Shown: one piece after another, positions 4,115 through 26,338 of the stretch
Position numbering within the stretch: position 1 is the stretch's first letter
Layout: every line of letters starts with the position of its first letter
NCBI GenBank assembly: GCA_963776275.1
Contig: CAVZMI010000023.1
Location: forward strand, 320,001-384,000
Length of the DNA stretch: 64,000 nucleotides
Reading direction: 5' to 3'
Source: Ignavibacteriota bacterium
GTDB taxonomy: Bacteria > Bacteroidota > Ignavibacteria > UBA10030 > CAVZMI01
Translations under genes and position numbers: made by a program
The notes under the pieces: generated by a model
Databases searched by the model: none
Told to the model about the DNA's origin: nothing
The model's input: only the letters and a program-made list of their open reading frames with translations

Positions 4115-5539
4115 ATGGCACAGCCGCGACGAAACGATATCCTTGTCCCGCTCTTCACACTCGTCTGTGATGCCGTTGCGATTGAATCGGCGTTTCTTCT
4201 TTCTTACTGGATTCGATTTTTCTCACCGTTTACATCGATTGTCGAGGTCATGACCGAGATCCCGCCACTTCGTGCTTATATCGAAGGGACACTGTTCATC
4301 ATTCCTGCATGGCTTTTAATTTTTCAATCGCGCCGGATGTACGCTGTCCGGCGAAACACATATATCACCGATGAGTTCTTCGCCATTGTAAAAGTCGTCA
4401 CGATCGGCATGTTAATTGTCATGAGCGCGGCATTTTTTTATCGGGCATTTTCTTATTCGCGTGTCGTGTTCGGTTTAATGTGGCTGCTTTCGATCATCCT
4501 GTTATCCATGGGGCGATTTTCCACAATTGCGTTTGAACGTGCTCTTTATCGGCGCGGAAAAGAGCTTCGAAACGTAGCGCTTATCGGTTCTGGAGAAACG
4601 GCGCTTAGAGTTCTCCGCGCACTCGCAAAGGCTCCTTTTCTCGGGTACAATATTGCAGGTTATGCTGCCGATAAGAAAAGCCCGCTTCCCGGTTTCCCGG
4701 ATTTTCGCTTCCTGGGACAGATTGCCGGAATAAGCGATATTTTCAAGCGCGAAGAAATCGAGCTTGTGCTGATTGCGCTTCCCTATTCCGATCACCCAAA
4801 GATCGTGCAACTTGCCCGGGAATGCGAGGGATATAATATTGAGGTGATGTTCGTTCCTGATATGCTCGAAATAATTACAAGCCGGCTGCGCGATGAGAGA
4901 GATTGAAGGAATCCCTTTTATCACCATCAAAGCGAGTGGCAATGTCGAACTGGGGAGGAATTTTTAAGCAGATATTCGATCTCGTTTGTTTCATCTCCTG
5001 CTTCTCATTCTCCTTCTCCCGTTATTTATCCTTATTACGTTTATCATCAAGCTCGATTCGCCACGGTCCGGTTTTTTATCTTCAGGAGCGCGATGGGATT
5101 CGACGGTAAACATTTCCGGATGATAAAGTTCAGATCAATGAAAACAGGAGCGGAAACGGCCCAACAGGAGATTCGATTGGGAATAAAGAATGATCCACGG
5201 CGAACAGGGGTCGGTATCTTCTTGAGAAAAACAAGCCTTGATGAACTTCCACAACTTATCAATGTTCTTAAAGGGGAAATGAGCCTTGTAGGCCCCCGCC
5301 CGGAACGAACCGACTATGTCGAACAATTTAAAAAAGTCATTCCAAAATACCTCGACAGGCACCGTGTGAAAACCGGTATGACCGGTTGGGCGCAGGTCAA
5401 TGGCTTTCGGGGTGATACTTCATTAGAAGATCGAATCTCATATGATCTGTACTACATCGAACATTGGTCATTCACGTTTGATCTTAAAATTTTACTTCGT
5501 ACAATCCGTGAATTACTGTGGAGCCGTTCAGCAGAATAA
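4115..5539 (+). CDS. Undecaprenyl-phosphate glucose phosphotransferase (WcaJ-like), with several frameshifts at about 4890-5100
   Basis: N-terminal TM helices and a CoA-binding-like domain; C-terminal [39 protein letters not shown]. Pieces are ORFs 4091..4906, 4903..5109 and 5093..5539. Confidence 0.85.
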
Positions 5540-11786: not shown

Positions 11787-12830
11787 ATGTCAAAATTGCT
11801 TCTTTGTATTGAGCAAGAACCGGTGATCATTGCCGAGGGAGCCGTCATAGAACGGCTGCGAAGAACACCCGGAATTTCCCTCGACCCCCACCTGCTCAAT
11901 TCCGCTCTATTGTATAATGATGAAGGAAAGAAATATCTTGAAGAGATCTATCGTCAATACATCGACTGTGCATATCGCCGAAATCTTCCGATGATCGTTC
12001 TCACTCCTACCTGGCGCGCAAATCCCGAACGAATCTCGCGGGCAGGTTTGCCTACCCGCCAGAGTTCAAAGGATGTCGGCGGGCGTGCCCATGATGTTAA
12101 TAAAGATTGTTACGATTTCCTTGCAGAAATACGATCCGGCTATGGTGAATATGCCAAAAAAATATTTATCGGCGGACTCATGGGCTGTTATGGTGACGCG
12201 TATAAACCCGAAGAGGCATTACCTTCCGGGACAGCACATTTTTTCCACCGGGAACAGGTCCGAGCACTTGCGTCGTCCGGCGTCGATTTTCTTTTAGGGT
12301 CGACACTGCCGGCTTTCAGCGAAGCACTTGGGATGGCACAGGCAATGGCCGATTCGGGGTGTCCGTATATCCTGAGTTTTGTCATTCGTGCAAATTGTAG
12401 ACTCCTTGACGGCACGCTTCTCCCGGATGCGATTAACAATATCGATTCAACAGTATCACCTAAGCCAGCAGGATATATGATCAATTGTGTTCATCCGGAA
12501 ATATTTAGGAAGGCGGTGATGAATGCAGGTCAAGATCAATCCTTCGACTCCCCCTCGACTCATCCCACTACGCGGGACTTGCTCGGGGTCGCTCAGGACA
12601 AGGGTCTAGGTCGAGGGTTGATACATAGTAGAATCCTTGGACTCCAGGCGAACACGTCGCTCAGAAGTCCGGAAGAACTTGACGGCCGGGAAGAGCTCGA
12701 CGTGGAAAATCCGGACAGATTTGGCGAAATGATGGCATCGCTTCATAAAGATTTTTCACTCAAAATACTCGGTGGATGCTGCGGCACGGATGAGCGGCAC
12801 ATAGAGTCCATTGTCAGCTCGCTTACCTAA
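11787..12830 (+). CDS. Homocysteine S-methyltransferase family protein carrying two in-frame REP-derived insertions
   Basis: TPTWRAN, GDAYKP, INCVHP, GGCCGT Zn-binding motif. Confidence 0.88.
   Translation: MSKLLLCIEQEPVIIAEGAVIERLRRTPGISLDPHLLNSALLYNDEGKKYLEEIYRQYIDCAYRRNLPMIVLTPTWRANPERISRAGLPTRQSSKDVGGRAHDVNKDCYDFLAEIRSGYGEYAKKIFIGGLMGCYGDAYKPEEALPSGTAHFFHREQVRALASSGVDFLLGSTLPAFSEALGMAQAMADSGCPYILSFVIRANCRLLDGTLLPDAINNIDSTVSPKPAGYMINCVHPEIFRKAVMNAGQDQSFDSPSTHPTTRDLLGVAQDKGLGRGLIHSRILGLQANTSLRSPEELDGREELDVENPDRFGEMMASLHKDFSLKILGGCCGTDERHIESIVSSLT
12051..12083 (+). repeat. In-frame REP-like palindrome (33 nt)
   Basis: CCTACCCGCC...GGCGGG; same family as CCTGTCCGCC...GGCGGA at 16226-16254 and the inverted copy at 52-157. 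Confidence 0.6.
12540..12602 (+). repeat. In-frame three-layer nested REP-like insertion (63 nt)
   Basis: TCCTTCGACTC[CCCCTCGACT[CATCCCACTACGCGGGAC]TTGCTCGGGGT]CGCTCAGGACAAG. Confidence 0.75.
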
Positions 12831-12831
12831 C

Positions 12832-12859
12832 TTGACATTTCGTTAATAATTGTTATTAT
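12832..12859 (+). promoter_or_regulatory. Putative cassette-array promoter (Pc-like)
   Basis: TTGACA(12832-12837), 16-nt spacer containing an extended -10 TG, TATTAT(12854-12859); about 130 nt upstream of the attI-like site. Confidence 0.6.
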
Positions 12860-12974
12860 ACGATAAAAGCGTTATTCTTTTTCCTCCAGAATCATCAGGA
12901 TAATGCATCGGCTTTTTTAAGAATGGAGCGTGAGATGCTCCACAGTATTTCAGAAACTATGGTTGACTGAGTCA

Positions 12975-12993
12975 ACCTAATCATAAGTTAGAA
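12975..12993 (+). other. attI-like integron recombination site
   Basis: L box ACCTAAT, 5-nt spacer CATAA, R box GTTAGAA; same geometry as attI1 (CCCTAAA-ACAAA-GTTRRRY). No long attC hairpin upstream. Confidence 0.7.
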
Positions 12994-13031
12994 CGCACCG
13001 ATATACATTCACAAATTCGGAGGATATCGAG

Positions 13032-13745
13032 ATGATCAATGACCTTCATGAACATACTATCGGCATCGCCCTAGGTGTTCGATTCAGGGCTAATTTTTCC
13101 ATTGAAGACCAATTGGGTGGAATAATCGATAAGATCCTATACTCGAAGGACTCATATTTCGGACCAAAAGTCTTCCCACTCGTCTACAACAACCCGAATG
13201 AAAAGGTCCTAATAAACGAGAACACCTTTGACAAACTGATTATCAACAACTCGAACATAATTCTCGAGGCAAACTTACTGGACTCGTTCAAAGGCGAGAC
13301 CATAGAAACGATACTCTCGAAATTCAACTCTCAAATTATAGACGGTGTCTTAAGGAACTACCGAGTCACCGAAATAAACCGCATTGGATTCATCCACAGA
13401 TACTTGTTTAAAATAGAGGATCTTGCTAAAACTTTTGTAAATAAAACGATCGGTGCTACTATCGAGGGAATTAACGACATAAATGTTCGCTTTACAAAAA
13501 AAATCCCGCTACCCGAGGCTATGGTAAAAAAGGACGTCAGTGATTACTTGAACGTCATCTTCAACGTTATCAAGCAGGCAGACCGAAACGAACTATTTGT
13601 ATCGGTTGACTTCCAGAAGTTATTCGATCCTTTCCTGACTTCTTCTTCTCAAATCGACTTTGATGATTTCACTAAGTTAGCACGCTCTTTCAATTCCAAG
13701 AGTTTCTTGGGTTGGTTCAATCAAAACTATGGGGTACTCAAATGA
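13032..13745 (+). CDS. Cassette 1 gene A: hypothetical, TIGR04255-like
   Basis: GGAGG RBS; N-terminal LGVRF strand and INRIGFIHRY motif resemble TIGR04255 proteins (recognised by eye). Confidence 0.6.
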   Translation: MINDLHEHTIGIALGVRFRANFSIEDQLGGIIDKILYSKDSYFGPKVFPLVYNNPNEKVLINENTFDKLIINNSNIILEANLLDSFKGETIETILSKFNSQIIDGVLRNYRVTEINRIGFIHRYLFKIEDLAKTFVNKTIGATIEGINDINVRFTKKIPLPEAMVKKDVSDYLNVIFNVIKQADRNELFVSVDFQKLFDPFLTSSSQIDFDDFTKLARSFNSKSFLGWFNQNYGVLK

Positions 13746-14182
13746 AATCAAGAAGCAGCCATACCGGTAAATCCATCGCGGACAAAGATTACTATGCAAG
13801 AGCCATCAGGAAGATGGAAGCCGAGCCCACCGTGGATGAAGCAGTTACTTTCTCTCAGACTGACGATACGCATCGAGATTTTAGCGTTCCCACGTCACGA
13901 AACAGAAGACCAGAGCCTGTTTTTTATCAGATTTCAGAGCACTTCAGAGAGAACTGGGTGAAATGGGTTCTCGCTGTTGCTGGGTTTGCATTGATGTATT
14001 TAATGGGCGATTCAAGAGCAACAATCACAGGCATCGACACCAAAGTGCAATATATTCAGGAGGACATAAAAGATCTAAAACAATCCAACCGCGAGAATTT
14101 ACAAAAGATTCAGAATCAGGAACTCCAAGTTCAAAAAAGCGAAATGCGCATCGAAAATCTCGAGAAGAAAAAGAGACCATAG
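13742..14182 (+). CDS. Cassette 1 gene B: hypothetical single-TM protein with C-terminal coiled coil
   Basis: ATGA overlap with gene A; TM segment WVKWVLAVAGFALMYLM; heptad-rich C-terminus. Confidence 0.7.
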   Translation: MKSRSSHTGKSIADKDYYARAIRKMEAEPTVDEAVTFSQTDDTHRDFSVPTSRNRRPEPVFYQISEHFRENWVKWVLAVAGFALMYLMGDSRATITGIDTKVQYIQEDIKDLKQSNRENLQKIQNQELQVQKSEMRIENLEKKKRP

Positions 14183-14213
14183 CCATCACACGAAACAACT
14201 TTTCGCCGTTGCG

Positions 14214-14433
14214 TTCTAACCGGTCGCTCAAGCTGACGTAATGAGCGCCCGCCTTCGTTATAAAACAAACTACAGCGGGCAGGTGGTTAAGCATGGCGCG
14301 CATAGGTCTTGTACAAAATTGAAAGCGCAGTAAATGAACTTGGTTCTTGTAGTACATTTTGAAAGTTATCGTTGCGGCTGCTCGTTTTTTGCGTCCCGCG
14401 CTTTTTGCGGGGCTTAGCCGCCATCCGTTAGTT
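14214..14433 (+). other. attC site 1 (intact, 220 bp)
   Basis: R'' TTCTAAC, 5 nt, L'' GCTCAAGC (extra C) ... L' GCTTAGC, CGCCATCC, R' GTTAGTT. Confidence 0.85.
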
Positions 14434-14469
14434 GGTGCCCATTCCATCATTTACATAAGGAGGACACTG

Positions 14470-14913
14470 ATGCCCCATCCCAAGAATCAACTCTATGTCT
14501 ACCTTTTCAATCGTATTGATAGCTCAATCGATAAAGGATATTTCCTTGAGTCTTCTTGGATTGCATATGCTATCATTGAAGACAGGTTAGATTCCATTCT
14601 TGTCAAGGTCACAAATTATAAGGGGCGTTTGATAAGTCGCAAATTGGAATACTTATCCCGCATTTCAAATCCATTTGTTCGCACCGAGTTCCCAGCTGAT
14701 TTTATTAAGAGAATTAACAATTGGACAAACCGCAGAAATAATCTGACACATGAGATGGCGAATGCACGCCTTTCAATTCAACAAATCACTGATCGCTCAA
14801 AGCAGATCGCACTTGAAGGAGAAAAGCTTGCGCATGACGTGTCAAGTGCCGTAATGCGGGCGAAAAAGCATCTGAAGAAAAAAAGTCGCCAGCCAACCAA
14901 CGACTCAAGCTAA
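14470..14913 (+). CDS. Cassette 2: HEPN-like protein
   Basis: AAGGAGG RBS before ATG 14470; helical, with an upstream AIIE motif and RNNLTH (R-x4-H). Confidence 0.65.
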   Translation: MPHPKNQLYVYLFNRIDSSIDKGYFLESSWIAYAIIEDRLDSILVKVTNYKGRLISRKLEYLSRISNPFVRTEFPADFIKRINNWTNRRNNLTHEMANARLSIQQITDRSKQIALEGEKLAHDVSSAVMRAKKHLKKKSRQPTNDSS

Positions 14914-15072
14914 CCGAATGAGTCCCGCAAAAAATACAAGGCAAGCTGTGCGCGCAAAATTAATGGCGCTCAAAGGTCTGGTGTAATTTGAGAGTCATCT
15001 TCGTAAAACTCGGTTTGTGTAGTACATTATTCTTAAATTTCATTGTGGCAAATTAGCCATCATCTGTTAGGC
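14895..15072 (+). other. attC site 2 (degenerate)
   Basis: AACCAAC-G-ACTCAAGC...AATTAGC-CATCATCT-GTTAGGC; body homologous to attC1 (ATGGCGC..AGGTCT, TGTAGTACATT). Confidence 0.75.
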
Positions 15073-15094
15073 GGCTGATATTCTGGAAGAATAT

Positions 15095-16141
15095 ATGGCA
15101 TCTCAATATGAAAACAGAACTAGTCCTGCATATGCCGATGTAATGCGCGGGTTAGTCAAGCCCTCTATGGCAAACAATCGGTTTATCTTAAAATGGTGGA
15201 CAACAAAACATGATGAACTTATCAAACAACAAATGTCAAAGTGGCAATGGTATTGGTTCCACTATATAAAGGATGAAGTTATCCTGCACACAGATTCTTC
15301 AATTATCGAGCATTGGAAGCGCGAAGATCCTGCATGCCGACGCGGTATAGGGACAGGTGCATGGTATAACGTCCTTGAATTTTTTGCATATGCGCGTGCT
15401 GAACAGATGAATCTAATAGGTTTAGTACGAGAACCAAAATGGAAATTGTGTCCATTATGTAATAACAAGTTCTTGGAAAATTCTCTCCCTGAACCACTTG
15501 CCAAAAAGCTTGGAGTAGATGGACTTGATTTTTGCGCTCCTTGTCTTACACCCAAAATTTTGCAAAGTACGGGAAACGACATTTTGACAAAAGAAGAGGT
15601 AAAGGAATATTTAAGGAAGTTATCCTCCATAATTCAAGCGATACCACACCAAGGATTTGGTGAAGGAGAGGAGGATATATTATACTTGAATTATGAACAA
15701 CGACTAGCAGCCCTGCAATTAATGTCGAATAAGCCATCAACGAAACACGTTAAGAAATTGTTTCTTTCTTGGCTTCATGCGTTGATAGAATCTGATATAC
15801 TCGAGGATGGAACGAGAAAAACAAGTCGAGGAACGATGTGTTTAGCAAAAGATGGTCATGCATGCCGCTCTCTCGCGGAGAAAACATTAGATGATTTTCT
15901 CTTTAATCATAGTGTCCCACATACACGCGAACCGTATTATCCAAATTCCAATTATCGTGCAGACTTCGATGTTAAAGGCGTGTATATAGAATACTTCGGA
16001 TTAATGGGAAATTATTTATATGACCAAAAGATCCAAGAGAAAAAGAAAATCGCTAAAGAAGTTGGTATTCGAATGATTCCTATTTATCCAAAGAACCTAT
16101 TAAATACCGTCTGGCTGAGTGAGACACTTCTTTCTATATGA
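15095..16141 (+). CDS. Cassette 3: Zn-ribbon protein with C-terminal PD-(D/E)xK/Vsr-like nuclease domain
   Basis: CPLC...CAPC; RSLAEKTLDDFL...EPYYP...RADF...YIEYFGL. Confidence 0.7.
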   Translation: MASQYENRTSPAYADVMRGLVKPSMANNRFILKWWTTKHDELIKQQMSKWQWYWFHYIKDEVILHTDSSIIEHWKREDPACRRGIGTGAWYNVLEFFAYARAEQMNLIGLVREPKWKLCPLCNNKFLENSLPEPLAKKLGVDGLDFCAPCLTPKILQSTGNDILTKEEVKEYLRKLSSIIQAIPHQGFGEGEEDILYLNYEQRLAALQLMSNKPSTKHVKKLFLSWLHALIESDILEDGTRKTSRGTMCLAKDGHACRSLAEKTLDDFLFNHSVPHTREPYYPNSNYRADFDVKGVYIEYFGLMGNYLYDQKIQEKKKIAKEVGIRMIPIYPKNLLNTVWLSETLLSI

Positions 16142-16150
16142 TTTGTTTTG

Positions 16151-16292
16151 CAGCCGCCTCCTAAGTAACTCATGAGTAGGAGTGCGTGGGCAGTGGTACA
16201 TGTTAAGTTATCGCCTGCTCGCCGGCCTGTCCGCCGTAGTGAAACGAAGGCGGAAGTGTTATTCACGTAGGCGTAGCGACCATCCATTAGTT
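16151..16292 (+). other. attC site 3 (degenerate, REP inserted at 16226-16254)
   Basis: CAGCCGCCT is complementary to the cassette start but AAC is lost; right arm AGTGTTATTCACGTAGGCGTAGCGACCATCC-ATTAGTT matches the arm ending at 17782. Confidence 0.65.
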
Positions 16293-16304
16293 AACAAGGG
16301 AAAA

Positions 16305-16769
16305 ATGAAAAAGAAATTATTATATTTTACACTACTTGCATTCTCAATATTTATTTTAATATGCGGATGCAATAAGAAAGAAATTAATTCACCCAATTCT
16401 ATGTCAATTGAATATCTTTCTTTTCAAGGCAATGGTTGTACTTCTTCAAATGTTTTATCAAAAACTAATGACGAAGCAGTTTTGAATTGGCAGTACGTGA
16501 ATGGCGTTCTTCAAATAGGCGTATTATTTAGTGCTCAATGTGTTGCTTCTATGAAGGATAGTGTTCTGGTATCAAATAATATCATTGATATATACCTTTC
16601 GGATACAAGTAGTGTTAGAGCTAAATGTAATTGTCCCTACAAAGTGATATTTAATTTTAGAGTAGAAGGAAATAATGAAATAAAAATATCATTTTATTAT
16701 AAACCTCAATCAGAATATTATTTGTTAGCTGATACAACCTTGATATTAATTGATTTACATGTTCGTTAG
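16305..16769 (+). CDS. Cassette 4: AT-rich lipoprotein of unknown function
   Basis: MKKK, hydrophobic stretch, ICGC lipobox; CNCPY motif. Confidence 0.75.
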   Translation: MKKKLLYFTLLAFSIFILICGCNKKEINSPNSMSIEYLSFQGNGCTSSNVLSKTNDEAVLNWQYVNGVLQIGVLFSAQCVASMKDSVLVSNNIIDIYLSDTSSVRAKCNCPYKVIFNFRVEGNNEIKISFYYKPQSEYYLLADTTLILIDLHVR

Positions 16770-16794
16770 GGTTTTCACTTTTTATTATTTTGCG

Positions 16795-16918
16795 GTATAA
16801 CCAGCGGCTCCCCGCAAACAATACGGGGTTTCACACAAAACGTTCAACAAGCTGACCCCGACCAAGAGTGTGTCGGAGCGGCCCGCCACAAAACTGGCGG
16901 GTAAACCATCCGTCAGAT
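16795..16918 (+). other. attC site 4 (two insertions)
   Basis: R'' GTATAAC-CAGCG-GCTC[38 nt]AAGCTGAC ... CGGAGCGG[24-nt palindrome]CCATCC-GTCAGAT. Confidence 0.65.
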
Positions 16919-16944
16919 GTAAAAGGAAATTAGCAGGAGGAAAT

Positions 16945-17682
16945 ATGAAATATTTAATTCTTCTTTTAACTTCTCTTTTGTTTTTATCTTGTTCAGATGA
17001 ACAAATAGTAAATCCAATTTTATTCCCAATTGATGAAGCAACAATTGGCGTCAGGAGCAAAATATTCTATCCTTCACTGGAATCGAATCAGATATTAAGC
17101 ATAGAGGATTTTGAATATAATATTAATGGTCAATTACAAAAAAAGATTTATTATAGCGGTAATAGGGAAATGATTTCACATTACGAGCTTTTCAACTATG
17201 ATAACAATGGAAAGCTTATATACAAATTGAATTTTCACAATAACATAAATTCTCCGACGGGATTTATTCTTCTGGATTCTACTATTTATTTATATTCTGC
17301 AAATTTACTTACTACAGAAAAAATAACTTATCCTTATGCAAGTTACGATATACTATACAACTTTGAATATGATGGAAAATATCTTATAAAAAAAACAAAA
17401 TATCATAACGAGGAATTAGAATCGTACATTATTTATAATTATAAAGATGGTATAATTCACAAGGAAATAATTTACTATAAGAATAATAGCATAACTGAAT
17501 CAAAAGAATATAAATATAAAAATGCAGTTTTAGTGGAAACAGTTTACTATGCCTCGAATAATGAAGCGAAGAGAAGAATAAGCTATAGTTACAATAATAA
17601 TGGAAAAATAGTAATAGAAAAAGTCGATGAACTTTTCGCTTATAGTTCGTCATTACCATACGTGGTAAAATATGAGTATTAA
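16945..17682 (+). CDS. Cassette 5: AT-rich lipoprotein with YD-like repeats
   Basis: AGGAGG RBS; FLSC lipobox; repeated (F/Y)xY(D/N)xxGKL motifs. Confidence 0.75.
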   Translation: MKYLILLLTSLLFLSCSDEQIVNPILFPIDEATIGVRSKIFYPSLESNQILSIEDFEYNINGQLQKKIYYSGNREMISHYELFNYDNNGKLIYKLNFHNNINSPTGFILLDSTIYLYSANLLTTEKITYPYASYDILYNFEYDGKYLIKKTKYHNEELESYIIYNYKDGIIHKEIIYYKNNSITESKEYKYKNAVLVETVYYASNNEAKRRISYSYNNNGKIVIEKVDELFAYSSSLPYVVKYEY

Positions 17683-17719
17683 AACGTATTGGTGCCGTAG
17701 TCCTAAAGGACTGCTATGC

Positions 17720-17782
17720 TGAGGTTAACCGCTCTATCCGCCAGAGTGTTATTCACGTAGGCGGAGCGGCCATCCGTTAGGC
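17720..17782 (+). other. attC site 5 (right arm only)
   Basis: AGTGTTATTCACGTAGGCGGAGCGGCCATCC-GTTAGGC. Confidence 0.65.
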
Positions 17783-17844
17783 GGCAATTCATAAATCCTG
17801 GCGGTTACATGACAAATAAAATCAACAATCTCGAAGGACGTACA

Positions 17845-18486
17845 ATGAAAGCTCGCATTCTTCTTCTTATAATTATCACGTTCTTTTTTGTCCTGATTTC
17901 TGAAGCACAAATCAGAGTTGGCCTACAGACAGGTCTGAATTTGGGGAGCTTAACATTACCAGACAATCTTGCCTCTAATGCTACAAGGAAAAATCTTACC
18001 GGTTTCACTATTGGAGGCGTTGGTGAACTTGCTCTTACAAATTCAATTTATCTTCAAATTGAACCTCGCTATATACAAAAAGGCTTCAAATCAGAGATTA
18101 CAGATGCTACAGGCACGGCAAAGGGAACTGAGACTATCAATTATTTTGAGTTGCCCATCCTAATCAAAGTAGAGTTTGGAGGGTCTTACTTACGGTCATT
18201 TGTTCTTGCAGGACCAAATATTGGCTTTTTGCTTTCAGCCTCTGAGGAAGTTATTGATTTTAGTGGACAGTCATTTCCTGTGCTCGACACTAAATCAAAT
18301 TACAAATCATACGATGTTGCTCTTGATTTCGGTGCAGGCGTAGAATACAGAATAACATCAACTCTTTCCTTGTTTTCTTCCGGACGATATTCTCTCGGTC
18401 TTGTAAATGTCTATGATGTTCCTGGTTATTCAGGAGAAACACGCGGTATCCAAATATATATTGGTGCGTTATTTAGTCTGGATTAA
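17845..18486 (+). CDS. Cassette 6: outer-membrane beta-barrel (porin family) protein
   Basis: Signal peptide; IEPRYIQKG, NYFELPILIK, AGPNIGFLLSA, GRYSLGL. Confidence 0.8.
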   Translation: MKARILLLIIITFFFVLISEAQIRVGLQTGLNLGSLTLPDNLASNATRKNLTGFTIGGVGELALTNSIYLQIEPRYIQKGFKSEITDATGTAKGTETINYFELPILIKVEFGGSYLRSFVLAGPNIGFLLSASEEVIDFSGQSFPVLDTKSNYKSYDVALDFGAGVEYRITSTLSLFSSGRYSLGLVNVYDVPGYSGETRGIQIYIGALFSLD

Positions 18487-18491
18487 TTGCC

Positions 18492-18515
18492 GCCTATCCA
18501 ACGTATCAAGCTGAT
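18492..18515 (+). other. attC site 6 (left arm only)
   Basis: GCCTATC (AAC changed to ATC)-CAACG-TATCAAGCTGAT; 18485-18498 is 13/14 complementary to 17776-17789. Confidence 0.7.
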
Positions 18516-18561
18516 GTAAGGAGCTGGGATACTTTAAGCATGGCAATCTTAGGAGGAATCT

Positions 18562-19482
18562 ATGAAGCATCATTCAGGAAAGAGGATAAACATAAACCTA
18601 GTCAAATATTCCATAATCGGTCTCGCAATAATACTGGTCTTTGTATTCTTATCTTTCTTCGCAAAGCAATTCTCAAAAACTAATCTGACAGTTGGTTGGG
18701 GCGACAGGAAAATATCGATTGAGACGGCCGGTCTAACAAATGCGGTGACTGCATCAAAAGAGACTTATATTGACTCGGAAATAGGATTTGCTTTTACTAA
18801 ACCAGAAAATATTTCCATAAGGATTGAACCGCCACTTATCGGGATTCGAAGTTATCTTAACTCTGATGGCGGAAACGTGAGTGAAAAGGAGTTTACTCAA
18901 ATTATCTCGGATGCCGGTGGATACTATGGCAAAGGAGAAATAGGTAATATGCTTGAAAACATGAAATGCTTTAGGTTCATTGTTGGTGAACCTATCTCGG
19001 TTGAACTGACTGATCAATCAACAAGCGACTATCTTGAATGGGTAATCCCAGGACTTGTGCAACAAAATAAGCTGCAAAAGAAAGATATTCCAAACTTTAG
19101 AAAGCAACAATTCGGAAATATGCCTGCCACTTTATCGAATTCCTTCTCAATTACAGTATTTAAAAAGAGCTATTTAGAAAGTCTTCCTTTTAAATATAAT
19201 ATTGTCCGGCTTGTCCTTGAAAGTAGTCATTCGATGCGAGCCTGGGTGAAAAGCATCGCGGCGGATGATAGGGCTACGCTTACTGCGCTAACCGTAGACA
19301 TAAAGAACATAAAGGTGAACGGATTAATCAAGGATTTGCAAATTGAAAAAATGTCTTTGTACACAGAGAATAGTAAATATTTCTTCCACGTAGAGTCTTC
19401 ATATTCCCCTCAAACAAACAGTCCCGAAATCGTTTGGAAAGTGCTGGAAGAAATGATTCATTCGTTTCGGGCAGCGATTTAG
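18562..19482 (+). CDS. Hypothetical N-terminally membrane-anchored protein
   Basis: AGGAGG RBS; one N-terminal TM helix; no recognised motif. Confidence 0.7.
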   Translation: MKHHSGKRININLVKYSIIGLAIILVFVFLSFFAKQFSKTNLTVGWGDRKISIETAGLTNAVTASKETYIDSEIGFAFTKPENISIRIEPPLIGIRSYLNSDGGNVSEKEFTQIISDAGGYYGKGEIGNMLENMKCFRFIVGEPISVELTDQSTSDYLEWVIPGLVQQNKLQKKDIPNFRKQQFGNMPATLSNSFSITVFKKSYLESLPFKYNIVRLVLESSHSMRAWVKSIAADDRATLTALTVDIKNIKVNGLIKDLQIEKMSLYTENSKYFFHVESSYSPQTNSPEIVWKVLEEMIHSFRAAI

Positions 19483-19676
19483 GGATGGCTGAGCGGCTAC
19501 CTCTGCGCGATGAATAAAAGCATCGGCTGACGGGCAAAGCTGTCCCAATAAACGCTCCGTTGAAAAGCACATGGTAAATTGTTACATTTAGCATGGCGAG
19601 TATATGTACATTGCAGATTAATCTTAAGAGCAGATGATCGAGTTTTTTGAAAAAAAATAAAAGAAAGGGTAATGCC

Positions 19677-20915
19677 ATGTGCCTCAATACGATAAGAAAC
19701 AAATTATCAAGCCTTATATTGATAGTATTTGCTTTGGTGGCGGCAGGTTGTTGCCCATCTCCCACCGGACCATCAGAAATACCGGGCGCAGCGACCATTG
19801 ATTTAAACGTCCCTCAGCAGCTTATCAGGGGCTTTGGCGGCGTAAATATGCCCGGATGGATTCCCGATTTGACTTCTAATCAAGTCCAGACGGCTTTTGG
19901 CACCGGGACCGGTCAAATTGGTCTGACCATACTGCGCATTCGCGTCTCTTACGATTCGATGGAATTTAATCTGGAAGTTCCCACTGCACTGCTGGCAAAA
20001 TCGCTCGGAGCAACAATATTTGCATCACCCTGGACACCTCCGGCTTCAATGAAAACAAACAATAATATCGCAGGAGGCGCTCTCGATACTAATTATTATG
20101 CGGCTTATGCGGCCCATTTAAAATCTTTCGCCGATTATATGTCAAACAACGGCGTTCCTTTATATGCCGTATCGGTTCAGAACGAACCAGATTACTCGGC
20201 AACATATGAAACCTGCGTTTGGACCCCATCACAATTGCTCAAGTTTGTCAAAAATAATGTGCAGACAATCGGCACCAGAATCATCGTACCCGAAGTGGGA
20301 AATTTCGATCATGCATTTTCCGACCCTATACTCAACGATCCTGTCGCCGCAGCGAATGTATCCATCATCGGCGGACACATTTACGGAGGAGGGCTCACAA
20401 GTTATCCTCTGGCCATCAGCAAAGGTAAAGAGGTATGGATGACCGAACATTGTGATACTGCCAGAACATGGACTGCTATTCTCGGAACAGCCAAAGAAAT
20501 TAATGATTGTATGAATGCGGACATGAACGCTTACGTGTGGTGGTATATCAGAAGGTTTTACGGCCTGATCGACGACAACAGTAACATCACCAAACGAGGT
20601 TATGTAATGTCTCAATATGCTAAATTCATTCGTCCGGGATTCTATAGGGTAAGTGCTACAGCCAATCCTCAGACAAATGTCGATGTCACTGCATATAAAA
20701 AAGGCTCCAAGGTGGTCATCGTTGCTTTAAACAGAAATTCATCTTCAACCGATCAAACATTTACGATCTGGAACGGGGCACCATATATGACGTTTACGCC
20801 CTATATCACATCAAGTACTAAGAATTGTGCACAGGGAAGTGATATTGCCGTACCAAACGGTAGTTTTACCGTTACTCTTGATTCATCTAGTGTGACGACT
20901 TTCGTGTTGAACTAA
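19677..20915 (+). CDS. GH30 (subfamily 8-like) glucuronoxylanase lipoprotein, copy 1
   Basis: AAGC lipobox; IRGFGG, ASPWTPP, QNEPD (acid/base), WMTE (nucleophile), WWYIRRFYG. Confidence 0.88.
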   Translation: MCLNTIRNKLSSLILIVFALVAAGCCPSPTGPSEIPGAATIDLNVPQQLIRGFGGVNMPGWIPDLTSNQVQTAFGTGTGQIGLTILRIRVSYDSMEFNLEVPTALLAKSLGATIFASPWTPPASMKTNNNIAGGALDTNYYAAYAAHLKSFADYMSNNGVPLYAVSVQNEPDYSATYETCVWTPSQLLKFVKNNVQTIGTRIIVPEVGNFDHAFSDPILNDPVAAANVSIIGGHIYGGGLTSYPLAISKGKEVWMTEHCDTARTWTAILGTAKEINDCMNADMNAYVWWYIRRFYGLIDDNSNITKRGYVMSQYAKFIRPGFYRVSATANPQTNVDVTAYKKGSKVVIVALNRNSSSTDQTFTIWNGAPYMTFTPYITSSTKNCAQGSDIAVPNGSFTVTLDSSSVTTFVLN

Positions 20916-20952
20916 AAGTTAAGACAATACGTTTGTGTTGTTTCGATAAATC

Positions 20953-20984
20953 ATCTCCTTGCTTTATCCAAAGGCAAGGAGATT
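20953..20984 (+). terminator. Hairpin after GH30 copy 1
   Basis: ATCTCCTTGC-TTTATCCAAAG-GCAAGGAGAT; identical copy after GH30 copy 2. Confidence 0.55.
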
Positions 20985-21105
20985 CTGTCCTCTACGGTAG
21001 TTAGACTTCCGTGTAGAAGATTCTGTGGCCGGCGGATGCTTTATAGTAAGAGTCAATGATCAGACTGGAGAAGCACAAGTCATATAGGGACATGAAATAT
21101 TTGCC

Positions 21106-21245
21106 GCTTAGCCAGTCCCTCCCCACAAATAACACGTGATTCCACATAAAACGTTCAACAAGCTAACGGAATGAACGCCTAATTGAAAAGCACGGTGAAA
21201 ATGTTTACATTTTGCATAACGAGCATAGGTGCAGTCCAGATTTAT
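21106..21245 (+). other. attC remnant (left arm and body) with the 38-nt insertion
   Basis: GCTTAGC-CAGTC-CCTC[38 nt]AAGCTAACGGAATGAACGCC aligns to attC1 TTCTAAC-CGGTC-GCTCAAGCTGACGTAATGAGCGCC; GCATAACGAGCATAGGT matches attC1 GCATGGCGCGCATAGGT. Confidence 0.6.
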
Positions 21246-21299
21246 CTAAAGAGAAGATGATCAGGTATTTTGAAAAAAATCAAATGAAAGGGTAAAGTT

Positions 21300-22556
21300 A
21301 TGTGCCTTAATACGATAAGAAACAATTTATTAAACCTTATACTAGTATTTACTTTGATGGCGGCAGGTTGTTCAAAGAAAGACACAATTAACGGACCTTC
21401 AGATGAATCGGGGACTGCCTCCGTTGATTTAGCTAATACCCACCAGGTGATAAGGGGCTTTGGTGCTGCGAACATACTTCCCTGGCGTCCTGATATGACT
21501 GTTGATCAAATCAACACGGCTTTTAGTACCGGAACAGGACAATTAGGTTTCACCATACTTCGCCTGCGCGTACCGCCTGACACATCTCAGTTCGCCATTC
21601 AGGTTGCTACTGCTCAGTTAGCACATGCTCAGGGAGTGACAATCATAGCTTCTCCCTGGACTCCACCTGCTTCGATGAAGACCAACAATAATATCGTTGG
21701 AGGCGAACTCAAGACTGATTCTTATGCAGCCTATGCGGCGCATCTGAAAGCGTTTGGCGATTATATGTCGAGCAACGGTGTTCCGTTGTATGCTGTATCC
21801 GTTCAAAACGAACCCGATGTAACGGTCACCTATGAGTCCTGCTATTGGAATGCAACACAAATGGTTAACTTTGTGAAGAACAATGTGCCCTCTATCGGAA
21901 TCAATATCATCGCAGATGAGTCAATGAATTTCAGCCACACCATTACAGATGCGATATTGAATGATCCTGTTGCCGCTGCGAACCTTTCCATTGTCGGTGG
22001 TCATCTGTACGGAGGAGGGCTAGTGAGTTATCCCCTAGCTATGAGCAAAGGGAAAGATTTATGGATGACCGAATATCTTGATACTATTACTACTTGGTCT
22101 CATGTTCTTGCCACAGGCAAACAAATTAATGATTGTATGAATGCGAGTATGAATGCGTATATCTGGTGGTATATTGTTCGCTTCTACGGACCGATCGATG
22201 ATGGTGAAAGAGGAGGTACTAAAGGAAACGTAACCAAACGAGGTTATGTCATGTCGCAGTACGCCAGATTCGTTCGTCCGGGATACTATAGGGTAAGTGC
22301 CACAGCCAGCCCTCAGACAAATGTTGATGTAACTGCATATAAAAACGGCTCCAAGGTGGTCATTGTCGTTTTGAACAGAAATTCATCTTCAATCGATCAA
22401 ACATTTACGATCCAGAACGGGACAGTCACGACGTTTACGCCCTATGTCACATCAAGTAGTAAGAATTGTGTACAGGGAAGTGATATTACTGTATCAAACG
22501 GTAGTTTTACCGTTACTCTTGATTCATCGAGTGTGACGACTTTCGTGTCGAACTAA
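21300..22556 (+). CDS. GH30 (subfamily 8-like) glucuronoxylanase lipoprotein, copy 2
   Basis: AAGC lipobox; QNEPD, WMTE, WWYIVRFYG; tandem paralogue of 19677..20915. Confidence 0.88.
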   Translation: MCLNTIRNNLLNLILVFTLMAAGCSKKDTINGPSDESGTASVDLANTHQVIRGFGAANILPWRPDMTVDQINTAFSTGTGQLGFTILRLRVPPDTSQFAIQVATAQLAHAQGVTIIASPWTPPASMKTNNNIVGGELKTDSYAAYAAHLKAFGDYMSSNGVPLYAVSVQNEPDVTVTYESCYWNATQMVNFVKNNVPSIGINIIADESMNFSHTITDAILNDPVAAANLSIVGGHLYGGGLVSYPLAMSKGKDLWMTEYLDTITTWSHVLATGKQINDCMNASMNAYIWWYIVRFYGPIDDGERGGTKGNVTKRGYVMSQYARFVRPGYYRVSATASPQTNVDVTAYKNGSKVVIVVLNRNSSSIDQTFTIQNGTVTTFTPYVTSSSKNCVQGSDITVSNGSFTVTLDSSSVTTFVSN

Positions 22557-22591
22557 AAGTTAAGACAATACGTTTGTCTTGCTTCGATAAA

Positions 22592-22625
22592 TCATCTCCT
22601 TGCTTTATCCAAAGGCAAGGAGATT
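22592..22625 (+). terminator. Hairpin after GH30 copy 2
   Basis: Same ATCTCCTTGC...GCAAGGAGAT hairpin as after copy 1. Confidence 0.55.
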
Positions 22626-22888
22626 CTATCCTCAACGATAGTTAAACTTCCGGGATAAGAATCCCCAGCCGGCGGACGCAGCCGTGCTCCATTATTTTTG
22701 AAACGTAAAATATCTCTTAGCTGCAGCGATAAAGAATAACTCGATAGAGAAAATCCGGTAACTTATGGAAAGATGATAGCGTCGCTTCGTAGAGGTTTTT
22801 TGACTCAAAATACTCGGAGGACTCTGTGGGACGGATGAACGCCATATAGAATTAATCGTTCACTCACTCTAACAACAGGGAGAGTACC

Positions 22889-23563
22889 ATGAAAAATTTC
22901 ATCATTTACACTATCATTTCATTAAGTATGATCTCTCTCGTCCATGCACAGGATATCGATATTTCTTCGAAGAGCGCAAAAGCCAGGATCGGAGATATCG
23001 ACATCTCGGTGAAAAAAGCGCCTTTTATTCAGGGAGACTGGGAACTCTCGATGTCCGGAGCGCTCGGACAATATACGACGAAAACTACCACCTCTATGAA
23101 TTCCTGGAATTATGGTAATGAATCAAAAGAAAATTTCGCCACCATCTCTCTTACAGCCGGATACTATTTTATCGATTGGCTGTCGCTTGAACCGGAAGTG
23201 AACCTCTTTGCATATGAGGGAGGACGGCCGGGAGAATCGGTCCTATTAAATCTTTCGTTCACATATCCGCTAGAACACTCTATCGTGGCTCCTTTCATTC
23301 GGGGAGGGTTTGGACTTGGTAATGCCGGCTTTATTACGGGAAATCTTCCATTTTCCTCTTTTGTTTCTGATAAATTCGATGTGAAAACATTCAATGCAGG
23401 TGCCGGAGTAAAACTTCTGATCGCTCAAAGTGTCGCGCTTAAGATAGAGCTGAATTATCGATATCAAACCTATACAGAAAATTATACCGGCTGTATCTTA
23501 TATTCAGTCAATAATAAAAATTCAATGATCAGACTCTTTGTCGGGTTTTCTGTTCTATTGTAA
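22889..23563 (+). CDS. Outer-membrane beta-barrel protein
   Basis: Signal peptide; amphipathic strands (AGYYF, SLEPE, APFIRGGFG, FNAGAGVK, RLFVGFSVLL). Confidence 0.75.
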   Translation: MKNFIIYTIISLSMISLVHAQDIDISSKSAKARIGDIDISVKKAPFIQGDWELSMSGALGQYTTKTTTSMNSWNYGNESKENFATISLTAGYYFIDWLSLEPEVNLFAYEGGRPGESVLLNLSFTYPLEHSIVAPFIRGGFGLGNAGFITGNLPFSSFVSDKFDVKTFNAGAGVKLLIAQSVALKIELNYRYQTYTENYTGCILYSVNNKNSMIRLFVGFSVLL

Positions 23564-23594
23564 TACCATCATAAGCTGTAAGTGACACCGAAAA

Positions 23595-23628
23595 CAGAAA
23601 GGGAGCCTCCATTAAGGGGCTCCCTTCT
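23595..23628. terminator. Bidirectional terminator
   Basis: GAAAGGGAGCCTC-CATTAA-GGGGCTCCCTTC between convergent genes. Confidence 0.65.
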
Positions 23629-23652
23629 ATTATTGAGGCATCAATTTTTTTA

Positions 23653-25008
23653 TTAAATATCCTTACCCTGGACGATAGGAATAAATCGAAACGATCCATC
23701 CGTACCAACATCGACAGAGATCGTATTCCCTTCGGCAATTTCTCCTGCAAGAATTTTTTCAGATAATTTATTCACGACATGTTTTTGAATTATCCGTTTA
23801 AGCGGACGGGCACCAAACTGCAGATCGTATCCCGCCTTTGCAAGCCACGTCTTTGCCGAATCGGTGAAATTGAGTATGATATTCTTTGCTTTCACCAATA
23901 CCTGTAGATTACGGAGCTGCAAATCAACAATTTGAACTATATCGTCGCGTGTAAGAGTTTTAAACATGATGATTTCATCGACACGATTAAGGAACTCCGG
24001 ACGGATCGTCTGTTTGAGCAGGTCGAATAGTTTAATCCTGACAGCCTCCATGACCTCATTGCGGTTTACATCGGTCATGTTCTGCGTCCACTCCATGATG
24101 ATATTCGATCCGAGGTTCGAGGTCATGATGATGATCGTATTCCGGAAATTAACAGTCCGTCCTTTGCTGTCGGTCAGCCGGCCTTCATCCAACACCTGCA
24201 GAAGCACATTGAACACCTCCGGATGCGCCTTTTCGATTTCATCAAGCAGCACAACGGAATAAGGTTTCCGCCGGACTGACTCGGTAAGCTGTCCGCCTTC
24301 CTCGTAACCGACATAACCGGGCGGCGCACCGATGAGACGTGATACGGAGAATTTTTCCATATACTCGCTCATGTCAATGCGCACCATTGCATTTTCATCG
24401 TTGAAGAGCGACTCGGCAAGTGCACGGGCAAGTTCGGTCTTTCCGACTCCGGTCGAGCCAAGAAAAATAAATGATCCGATCGGTCTTCGCTCATCCTGCA
24501 ATCCCGCTCGCGCACGACGCACGGCATCGCTCACTGCCTGGACTGCCTCGACCTGATCGACCAACCGTTCGTGTATCCGTTCTTCAAGATGCAGTAATTT
24601 CGACCGCTCGCTTTCGAGCATGCGGCTGACCGGGATACCGGTCCATTTTGCCACGATCTCTGCAACGTCCTCGGCATCGACTTCTTCCTTCAACATTTTC
24701 CGATTTTTCTGAACTACTGCGAGCTCTTGTGTTGCGGCTTTCAGTCTTTTTTCGAGGTTAGCAATTACTCCATAGCGCAGTTCGGCGACTTTTGCAAGAT
24801 CGCCTTCGCGTTCTTTCTTTTCAGCCTCGTTTCGCGCTTTCTCGATCTCGGATTTCATTGTCCGTATAGATTGTATGAGATTCTTCTCATTCTGCCAGTG
24901 TGTTTTCAGCTGAGTGCGGACTTCGTTGAGATCTGCAATTTCTTTTTCAATCTCATAGAGTCGCTTTTTTGTCGTTTCCTGCATTTTCTCTTGTGTAAAT
25001 TCAGTCAT
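23653..25008 (-). CDS. clpB: ClpB C-terminal half (rest of M-domain plus NBD2)
   Basis: [21 protein letters not shown] Walker [26 protein letters not shown]; own GAGGA RBS and ATG. Confidence 0.9.
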
Positions 25009-25024
25009 TGTTCCTCACATCCTT

Positions 25025-26338
25025 TTATGCCTGTAATTCGCGTTTCAACGCTTCACGTTCGATTTCCAATTGTTTGATTTTTCTCTCAATTTCATCGAGT
25101 TCTTCCGGCATTGAATCGATTTCAATCCGCAGTTTTGAGGCGGCTTCATCGATCAGGTCTATCGCCTTATCGGGAAGGAATCGATCCGAGATGTACCGAT
25201 GACTCAGTTGTGCTGCTGCGACAATCGCACCGTCGGTAATACGCACGCCGTGGTGGATTTCATATCGTTCTTTTAATCCTCGCAGAATCGAAACCGTATC
25301 CTCGACTGTCGGCTCATCGACAAGAACCGGCTGGAACCGGCGTTCCAGAGCCGCATCTTTCTCAACATGCTTCCGATATTCATCGATCGTTGTGGCGCCT
25401 ATAGCCCGGAGGTCACCGCGTGCCAGTGCGGGTTTTAGCATATTCGCGGCATCGACAGCTCCCTGTGCGGCTCCGGCACCTACGAGCGTATGAAGTTCAT
25501 CAATGAATAGAATAATTTCGCCGTTGGATTGAATTACTTCGTTTAACACGGCTTTCAATCGCTCTTCAAATTGTCCACGAAAGCTCGTCCCTGCGACAAG
25601 CGTTCCCATATCGAGCGCAACAATCCGCTTGGTTCGTAAAGACTCCGGCACATCGCCGTTAACAATTCTCTGAGCAATTCCTTCGGCGATTGCAGTTTTT
25701 CCGACGCCGGGTTCACCGATTAGAACAGGGTTATTTTTCGTACGCCGTGAAAGAACCTGAAGGACTCTTCGGATTTCATCATCGCGTCCGATAACCGGGT
25801 CGAGTTTACCGCGCCGGGCAAGATCGTTCAGATCGCGTCCGAATTTTTGCAATGCCTGATATTTATCTTCAGCATTTTGATCTGTCACGCGCTGGCTGCC
25901 GCGGATTTCTTTAAGGACTTTATATACATCCTCTTTTTTGACTCCCTGATCAATCAGGAGTTTTGCTCCTTTATTTTGCTTTTCTTCAATAAGTCCAAGG
26001 AGCAGATGTTCGGTACTGACATATTCGTCTTTAAGCTGGTTCGCTTCCTTGAGTGCCGTTTCGAATACCTGCCCGAGTGATTGTGAGACAAACTGGTTCC
26101 CAAGCTCGGCACCCGATATTTTGGGGAGTTTCTCAATCGCTTCATTGATCTTGATTTTGATATAATTCACATTGGCTCCGACCTTCTGTAGAATCGGAAC
26201 AGTAATCCCGGCCGCATCCTGGATAAGCGCAGCAAGGAGATGTTCCGGCTCTATAGACTGACTGCCATAACTGGTTGCAATCTCCTGAGCATTTTGAACA
26301 GCTTCCTGCGCTTTAATTGTAAATTTATTAAAATTCAT
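25025..26338 (-). CDS. clpB: ClpB N-terminal half (N-domain, NBD1, first M-domain helix)
   Basis: [40 protein letters not shown]; ends [11 protein letters not shown]-stop. Confidence 0.9.

Follow-up and report, generated by a model that had tools for sequence, protein, structure and literature searches.

Arrays of attC sites that have no intI gene nearby are known as clusters of attC sites lacking integrases (CALINs), and half of them lie in genomes without an IntI (PMC4889954). The part of that paper available to us lists loss of intI as one origin of such arrays, and describes attI as unknown for most integrons and not searchable. In the ilvD-linked integrons of Xanthomonas, intI was lost by frameshifts, stop codons and large deletions and the arrays are fixed, and strains sharing an intI lesion usually carry identical arrays (10.1101/2025.06.18.660453, describing Gillings et al., as far as the accessible text goes). 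Integrons have already been recorded in Ignavibacteriae, according to an excerpt of the IntegronFinder 2.0 paper (PMC9024848). Here we describe a gene cassette array on a stretch of 64,000 nucleotides (nt), hereafter the window, from an Ignavibacteriota bacterium (assembly GCA_963776275.1, contig CAVZMI010000023.1, positions 320,001 to 384,000 of the forward strand). We consider it likely that this locus was once part of a chromosomal integron, of which the cassette side and the attI remain and the integrase gene has gone. This is carried by the anatomy of the locus, by an attI and a first attC site that are homologous to sites associated with integrases, by two assemblies in which IntI is absent and by a cassette replacement bounded by attI. 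An earlier interpretation made from the letters and open reading frames (ORFs) of the window, hereafter the sequence-only reading, had proposed either a satellite attI serviced in trans or an integron that had recently lost intI. Our results support it, except that the loss is not recent.

All coordinates are positions within the window. In brief, the block 12832-22733 consists of a near-consensus promoter-like site, an attI, seven co-oriented cassettes and then two GH30 genes. Ten co-oriented ORFs on the + strand lie between a gene of the homocysteine S-methyltransferase family (11787-12830, + strand; PF02574, E 3e-33) and an outer-membrane protein gene (22889-23563), and the G+C content of the ORFs in the array is 0.26-0.45, compared with 0.45-0.51 in the flanks. 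The methyltransferase gene occupies the position expected for intI, in the same orientation as the cassettes, just as had been claimed. Orthologues of it occur in 5 of 81 genomes of the order, and its product shares 93-94% amino-acid identity with that of a sister species. Two bases past its stop codon starts the TTGACA of a candidate Pc-like cassette promoter (12832-12859, + strand), TTGACA-16-TATTAT with a TG extension. This site has 11 of 12 consensus matches and ranks top of the 31 sigma-70-like sites in 12500-23000, which bears out the proposed near-consensus promoter as a sequence; by its letters it may be active. It is kept in the sister species save one base of the -10 hexamer.

The attI lies at 12961-12993 (+ strand). 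It starts with a perfect 8+8 palindrome, GGTTGACTGAGTCAACC (12961-12977), which is followed by a CTAATCA-N3-GTTAG core, read as CCTAATCATAA-GTTAGAA at 12976-12993, with GTTAGAA itself at 12987-12993. The crossover would fall between G12987 and T12988. This core is the sole match in the entire assembly that carries the window (G000), so that no further copy of the attI motif was found in that genome. A DNA search of 277 genomes of the order with 12832-12995 as query recovered the sister species (G001) over the whole query at 84% identity, genome G131 weakly and over palindrome and core only, and an unrelated weak match in G042 confined to 12838-12872. In G131 the attI-like site, on contig C16, lies some 80 nt upstream of an intI gene, in divergent orientation. 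This intI is broken into four pieces whose frames differ, a state that may reflect decay or an error of assembly.

A 22-letter attI pattern derived from three sites was also run on GTDB species genomes and metagenome contigs. Among the species genomes only G001 and G131 matched, and the four matching metagenome contigs include one that is G001's own sequence. In contig L042 the attI-like site adjoins an intI containing two in-frame stops. Contigs L044 and L045, identical in sequence, carry the pattern with no IntI match in the 1.7 kb upstream, where the ORFs are instead GIY-YIG-like and CYTH-like (names given by reading the sequence). A related, weaker site with the same CTAATCA-N3-GTTAG core accompanies the intact IntI of a second G131 contig, C6 (420.7 bits). 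In a six-way alignment the second base of the palindrome arm covaries with its partner (T-A, C-G three times, A-T), with a mismatch only in L042. On these grounds of homology we take 12961-12993 to be a true attI, homologous to the intI-adjacent sites of G131:C16, L042 and G131:C6. The attI-like geometry that had been noticed from the sequence is thus matched by 33 nt of homology to IntI-adjacent attI sites of relatives, including the covarying palindrome.

G001 is a congener of the organism studied here; its assembly is 99% complete and its flanks are about 5% different. Identity between the two is 94-95% up to 12826, 83.7% over 12832-12991 and 96.4% over 19544-25000, and the stretch between, 12992-19543, has no homology to G001 save three attC fragments. 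The left break falls exactly past the GTTAG of attI, the two genomes being unrelated from the next base, and on the right homology restarts at 19544, 15 nt before a core-like GTTGAAA. After its attI, G001 carries other cassettes with GTTAGGC junctions of their own, none of which is present anywhere in G000. All seven proximal cassettes thus differ, and the distal GH30 genes and the layout without intI are common to both. Invariant gene content among relatives, which would have spoken against an integron, was therefore not seen: with flanks 94-96% identical, none of the seven proximal cassettes is common. The view that the older, distal cassettes have become fixed agrees with the GH30 genes and half sites common to both species at 96.4% identity. 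In each species the methyltransferase gene stands where intI would be expected, and each has the second copy (B) of a direct repeat described below, so the layout without intI predates the split of the species; a recent loss of intI, as proposed earlier, does not agree with this. Since that layout is common to both and every proximal cassette is different, the array turned over after intI had left the locus. Between the methyltransferase stop codon and the promoter-like site, G001 has 285 extra nt. About 180 nt of this segment is a repeat resembling a miniature inverted-repeat transposable element (MITE), with several hairpins (L025, G001:C3, reverse complement 2886-3067), of which G000 has at least 8 copies, including those at C23:295210, C23:244127, C7:36156 and C32:87661.

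Integrases were called at a TIGR02249 score of at least 265 bits, a cut-off passed in 13 of 41 genomes of the same order. No IntI was found in the window or in the rest of the G000 genome, as the sequence-only reading had expected for the window. The best TIGR02249 matches reach 137.6 and 135.3 bits, and both skip the IntI-specific model region 181-235. None of the seven PF00589 genes adjoins an array, and a tblastn search of the assembly with the IntI of a relative gave at most 34% identity. G001 has no IntI either. What it has, beside a different array, is a piece of the IntI-specific domain that is about 35 residues long and contains a stop; the region is absent from G000. This remnant (L039, G001:C20:9000-18000, about 4235-4354, - strand) has a Xer-like recombinase gene on one side and, on the other, an attI-like CTAATCAAATGTTGGGC (4830-4850) at the head of another array. 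Two otherwise full-length intI genes of relatives, G040:C5:8075-9019 (453 bits) and G024:C3:8176-9117 (437 bits), have one in-frame TAA each; together with those in L042, such stops could indicate recurrent intI decay in the order, or something else.

The attC sites were compared with those of two relatives, G024 and G035, whose IntI (437 and 445 bits, respectively) each face a divergent array. Their attC sites, 163-169 nt long, are laid out as CTAAC, 5 nt, GCTCAAGC, a centre, GCTTAGC, 8 nt and GTTAGGC. The 14 sites gave a consensus fold with compensatory changes in 14 of 27 pairs; in its left arm one C inside L'' and one A following L'' are left unpaired (G and T on the bottom strand). A covariance model, R1, was trained only on these 14 IntI-adjacent sites; on the attC sites of G131:C6, which are outside the training set, it scored 26.4 and 21.3 bits. 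In the 64-kb window R1 gave one match, at 14214-14435 on the + strand (31.6 bits, E 1.1e-5), which spans the whole model and contains a 140-nt central insertion. This is attC1, the site of the first cassette; its score is on a par with those of the G131:C6 sites. All R-box pairs (5 of 5) and L-box pairs (7 of 7) can form in it, and its L'' contains an additional C, which is a G on the bottom strand. Cassette 1 has the R'' TTCTAAC (14214), the reverse complement, at 7 of 7 positions, of the GTTAGAA at its attI junction; this is expected if the linear form of a cassette starts within the R' core that belongs to it.

Eight junctions, all in the same orientation, have modules in common with attC1 (repeat families D7, D9 and D11-D15). 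Since the junctions other than attC1 fail R1, they are regarded as attC remnants on the ground that they resemble attC1 and other copies in the genome. The inverse core consensus of attC sites is RYYYAAC for R'' and GTTRRRY for R', with the cassette boundary inside R', and six of the sites score 5-7 of 7 on each core. The intact attC1 is at 14214-14433 (220 nt). The second site, attC2 (14891-15072, 182 nt), has R'' AGCCAAC, L'' ACTCAAGC, a weak L', R' GTTAGGC and a normal 5-nt spacer, and was not detected by R1. In attC3 (16159-16292, 134 nt) a 7-nt insertion splits R'', L'' is missing and R' is ATTAGTT, with A in place of the crossover G. The fourth, attC4 (16795-16918, 124 nt), has a 39-nt insertion in L'' and R' GTCAGAT, with the core GTCAG, and its fold has a z of -2.3. 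Both cores and 6 of 7 R pairs are kept in attC5 (17723-17782, 60 nt; fold z -3.7), whose R1 score of 9.4 bits (E 0.41) is not significant. In attC6 (18496-18554, 59 nt) R'' is interrupted by 4 inserted nt, the spacer is down to 3 nt and R' is CTTAGGA, with C for the crossover G. The seventh junction (about 19525-19565) is a left-half attC remnant only, and the eighth (21106-21188), between the GH30 genes, is a degenerate left half. All eight are on the + strand.

The first site is thus the best and the last two are the worst, and the order between them is not monotonic. The sequence-only reading had described a decay gradient along six or seven related sites. The gradient stands for both ends of the array and does not stand for its middle, where the fifth site keeps both cores; as to the number, eight junctions share the modules, but only attC1 passes the independent model. 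The mutated cores and insertions ascribed to attC3 and attC4 are there. Two other details were wrong: the shortened spacer attributed to attC2 belongs to attC6, and attC5, listed with the half sites, is not one. The claim that attC1 is intact holds as regards its 12 of 12 possible R/L pairs and its match to R1. It does not hold for the unconstrained fold of the bottom strand, in which the boxes are absent; as the full pairing is possible, attC1 is not refuted by this check.

About 20 further half-site matches were found on contigs C4, C30, C6 and C25 and elsewhere on C23 of G000. The other arrays of this genome, at C4:1-3950, C30:396-11818, C6:149942-152421 and C23:128-151 kb, have attC-like sites of roughly 116-407 nt, measured as the distance from left to right half site, and several reach contig ends. 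A hairpin module of about 40 nt in attC3 (16220-16258, within the segment 16142-16305) is dispersed on at least 8 contigs of G000, including C21, C8, C7, C6, C27, C28 and C37, and the long attC sites here may partly be built from invading small repeats. In G002, the closest relative that bears an IntI, no attC of this type was found in the 20 kb beside intI.

We suggest the following course of events. Cassettes would have entered attI by IntI-catalysed attI x attC recombination at G|TT, as the anatomy of the junctions indicates, and expression of the proximal cassettes would come from the promoter-like site, with a possible contribution of transcripts that read through from the methyltransferase gene. 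The intI gene would have been lost before the G000 and G001 species split. Afterwards attI may have been used by an IntI encoded elsewhere and acting in trans, or arrays may have been swapped between strains by homologous recombination. As no IntI is found in the assembly, the array is probably frozen now, and small insertions and core mutations would be disabling the attC sites.

In addition, the whole 10-kb block may lie within DNA that was inserted into the methyltransferase gene at its 3' end and that carries a substitute gene end. The block is flanked by a 134-nt imperfect direct repeat whose copies share 72-76% identity. Copy A (12690-12823, + strand; repeat families D8 and D10) is the functional 3' end of the methyltransferase gene, its last 46 codons, and copy B (22734-22868, + strand), just upstream of the gene at 22889, is a frameshifted remnant of such an end, in which one cysteine of the GGCCGT motif is missing. 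The similarity begins abruptly at 12690/22734 and ends at the stop codon. To judge from the sequence, an element that inserts into a gene and supplies it with a replacement for the disrupted end would leave this pattern. No recombinase gene was found within 12690-22733.

Several results weigh against the reading of the locus as an integron that kept its attI and lost its integrase gene. The unconstrained bottom-strand fold of attC1 forms no R/L boxes and is no better than shuffled sequences (z -0.05). Forcing the boxes costs 5.2 kcal/mol, more than in any of the 14 control sites (0-3.3 kcal/mol), of which 9 form all R/L pairs spontaneously. Only one of the eight junctions, attC1, passes R1 at E<=0.01. 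Half-site profiles built from the relatives matched only the left end of attC1 (24.8 bits), and R1 with its filters off gave only weak, partly chance matches and split attC1. The 31 sigma-70-like matches in 12500-23000 are no excess over the shuffled mean of 28.6, and the promoter was scored against the sigma-70 consensus, the promoter rules of this phylum being uncertain. No empty site of the insertion was seen: G001 has the same insertion, and the three distant methyltransferase orthologues are without synteny. The G000 assembly (38 contigs, 96.4% complete, 5.3% contamination) is fragmented, several of its other arrays run into contig ends, and intI in relatives is often found on short contigs of 3-9 kb; an intI could therefore have been missed. 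We also list here the sole DNA run (X1; share 0.05, 8 short contigs, low depth), which gave no circle, joint or alternative arrangement and is evidence neither way.

The strongest competing explanation is that the platform is active today, with intI present in the organism but missing from the assembly, on an unbinned or unassembled contig or a plasmid, and attI serviced in trans. The broken arrays of the incomplete assembly and the short contigs that often bear intI in relatives would suit this, as would the intact attC1, the perfect R''/R' match of cassette 1 and the precedent of G131, which combines one intact IntI with a second attI platform whose intI is broken. Yet neither G000, at 96.4% completeness, nor G001, at 99%, has an IntI, G001 retains only the short remnant mentioned above, and most attC sites of the array bear disabling changes. 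We therefore hold present-day activity to be possible, though rather doubtful.

Slightly less probable, in our opinion, is that the cassette differences arose without an integrase, through a swap of whole arrays, by homologous recombination in the flanks, with DNA of other strains, or through homologous attC-attC deletions from one long ancestral array. Recombination would have had conserved flanks of sufficient length, promoter-attI on the left and GH30 on the right, attC modules occur repeatedly both in the array and elsewhere in the genome, and the right boundary at 19544 lies 15 nt before GTTGAAA rather than at it. The left boundary, however, falls exactly after the GTTAG of attI, with only 5 nt common, and deleting from attI requires site-specific recombination. 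The two arrays have no cassette in common, and donor arrays would still need to be built at the same platform without intI by some IntI.

It is very improbable that the cassettes were inserted at a fortuitous secondary (attG) site downstream of a resident promoter, in a place that was never an integron platform. According to the available part of the report by Loot et al. (10.1101/2022.09.11.507474), IntI can insert cassettes at genomic GWT sites, and near promoters such cassettes are expressed; in addition, nothing corresponding to 12832-12957 is found between intI and attI in relatives. The same text states, though, that such sites differ broadly from attI in sequence and structure, and the explanation does not fit because the insertion site here is an attI homologue, matching IntI-adjacent attI over 33 nt including the covarying palindrome. 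Least credible of all is that the repeats are ordinary intergenic elements of the repetitive extragenic palindrome or MITE type between resident genes, for although parts of the long sites are dispersed (the hairpin module of 16142-16305), attC1 folds no better than shuffled sequences and 12000-24000 has no Rfam match at E<=0.1, this is contradicted by the covariance-model match at attC1, the R''/R' complementarity across the cassette boundary, the attI homology with a cassette replacement bounded by attI, and the arrays of the same site type that adjoin IntI in relatives.

Returning to the preferred reading, an integron that kept attI after losing intI, we tentatively put forward that attI sites of this family belong to orphan platforms that continue to be used although no integrase is encoded in cis, an idea we think somewhat unlikely. 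None of the five contexts of the family has an intact adjacent intI: the gene is deleted in G000 and G001, in four pieces in G131:C16, interrupted by two stops in L042 and lacking within 1.7 kb in L044/L045. G131 holds its broken-intI platform alongside a second, intact IntI with a related attI. If the idea is true, one IntI, resident elsewhere or brought in by a mobile element, would suffice for the continued evolution of several satellite attI arrays, and the satellite described here may itself have moved as a 10-kb insert with its own copy of the end of the target gene.

The seven cassettes are promoterless, co-oriented and foreign in composition. Their genes are single-copy in G000, mostly without known family and low in G+C, and all are on the + strand. 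Cassette 1 (12988-14427) contains the overlapping ORFs 13032-13745 and 13742-14182 and attC1. Neither ORF has a family in Pfam, NCBIfam or PADLOC, and the first has only unnamed clusters in the protein atlas. The gene pair is present in 3 of 277 genomes. One of these, G214, belongs to another family and carries the two-gene unit at G214:C13:74296-75400 (L047), with 67% amino-acid identity for the first ORF and no recognisable attC around it. Cassette 2 (14428-15066) has ORF 14470-14913 and attC2. Cassette 3 (15067-16286) has ORF 15095-16141, whose product matches the PADLOC candidate family PDC-S69 in its C-terminal part (E 2.9e-9), and attC3. A lipoprotein-like ORF (16305-16769) and attC4 (repeat family D9) make up cassette 4 (16287-16912), and ORF 16945-17682 and attC5 make up cassette 5 (16913-17776). 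Cassette 6 (17777-18548) encodes an outer-membrane beta-barrel protein (17845-18486; PF13568, E 2.7e-21) and ends in attC6, and cassette 7 (18549-19558) holds ORF 18562-19482 and the left-half attC remnant.

Downstream follow two tandem GH30 xylanase-like genes (19559-22733, genes at 19677-20915 and 21300-22556, + strand; PF02055, NF052681). The pair is XynC-like and 74-94% identical in segments (repeats D1-D6), including the terminator-like hairpin that each gene bears. A third GH30 paralogue is located elsewhere in G000, at C14:118058-119151. Beyond the outer-membrane protein gene, a ClpB-type chaperone is split into two adjacent ORFs on the - strand, at 23653-25008 and 25025-26338. Clp_N and AAA domains are found in the N-terminal half, AAA_2 and ClpB_D2-small in the C-terminal one; the split may reflect either a broken gene or a mistake in the assembly.

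The origin and the present function of integrase-less arrays are an open point in integron biology, for which the locus offers a clean natural case. It combines an attI identified by homology, an intI-less state older than a species split, exchanged proximal and fixed distal cassettes, and decaying distal attC sites, and it is of interest mainly as evidence of cassette turnover after local loss of the integrase. As the organisms are uncultured, its value lies in comparison rather than in direct experiment. It should also be noted that attC sites in the integrons of this Bacteroidota lineage measure 160-220 nt and above, and the default size limits of detection tools may miss such sites.

Compared with the integrons of its relatives G024, G035 and G131:C6, the locus has the same attC layout, with R'' CTAAC, 5 nt, L'' GCTCAAGC and an extra base, L' GCTTAGC, 8 nt and R' GTTAG, and the same attI core, CTAATCA-N3-GTTAG. 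In the relatives' integrons a divergent intI (420-445 bits) accompanies uniform attC sites, 163-198 nt long and canonical in their fold, whereas the window has no intI and has heterogeneous, partly disabled sites. Like the attG insertions in the accessible account of Loot et al. (10.1101/2022.09.11.507474), its cassettes follow a promoter-like site and are not part of a complete integron; unlike them, they are inserted at an attI homologue and not at a bare GWT site.

With the sedentary integrons of Xanthomonas, as described in the part of the source available, the locus shares a fixed chromosomal position adjoining a housekeeping-type gene. It differs in that intI is wholly absent and that two species with the same layout have none of the seven proximal cassettes in common. 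The nearest described category is that of the CALINs, as far as the consulted text of PMC4889954 defines them, with which the window shares a co-oriented cassette array, attC sites, no nearby intI and a genome without IntI. CALINs are called from at least two model-detected attC sites; in the window one of eight was detected, with R1 and not with IntegronFinder's model, among sites that are 59-220 nt long and mostly degraded. In contrast to the CALINs of that text, both an attI and a promoter-like site can be identified in the window, and the locus is a CALIN-type element that keeps its attI.

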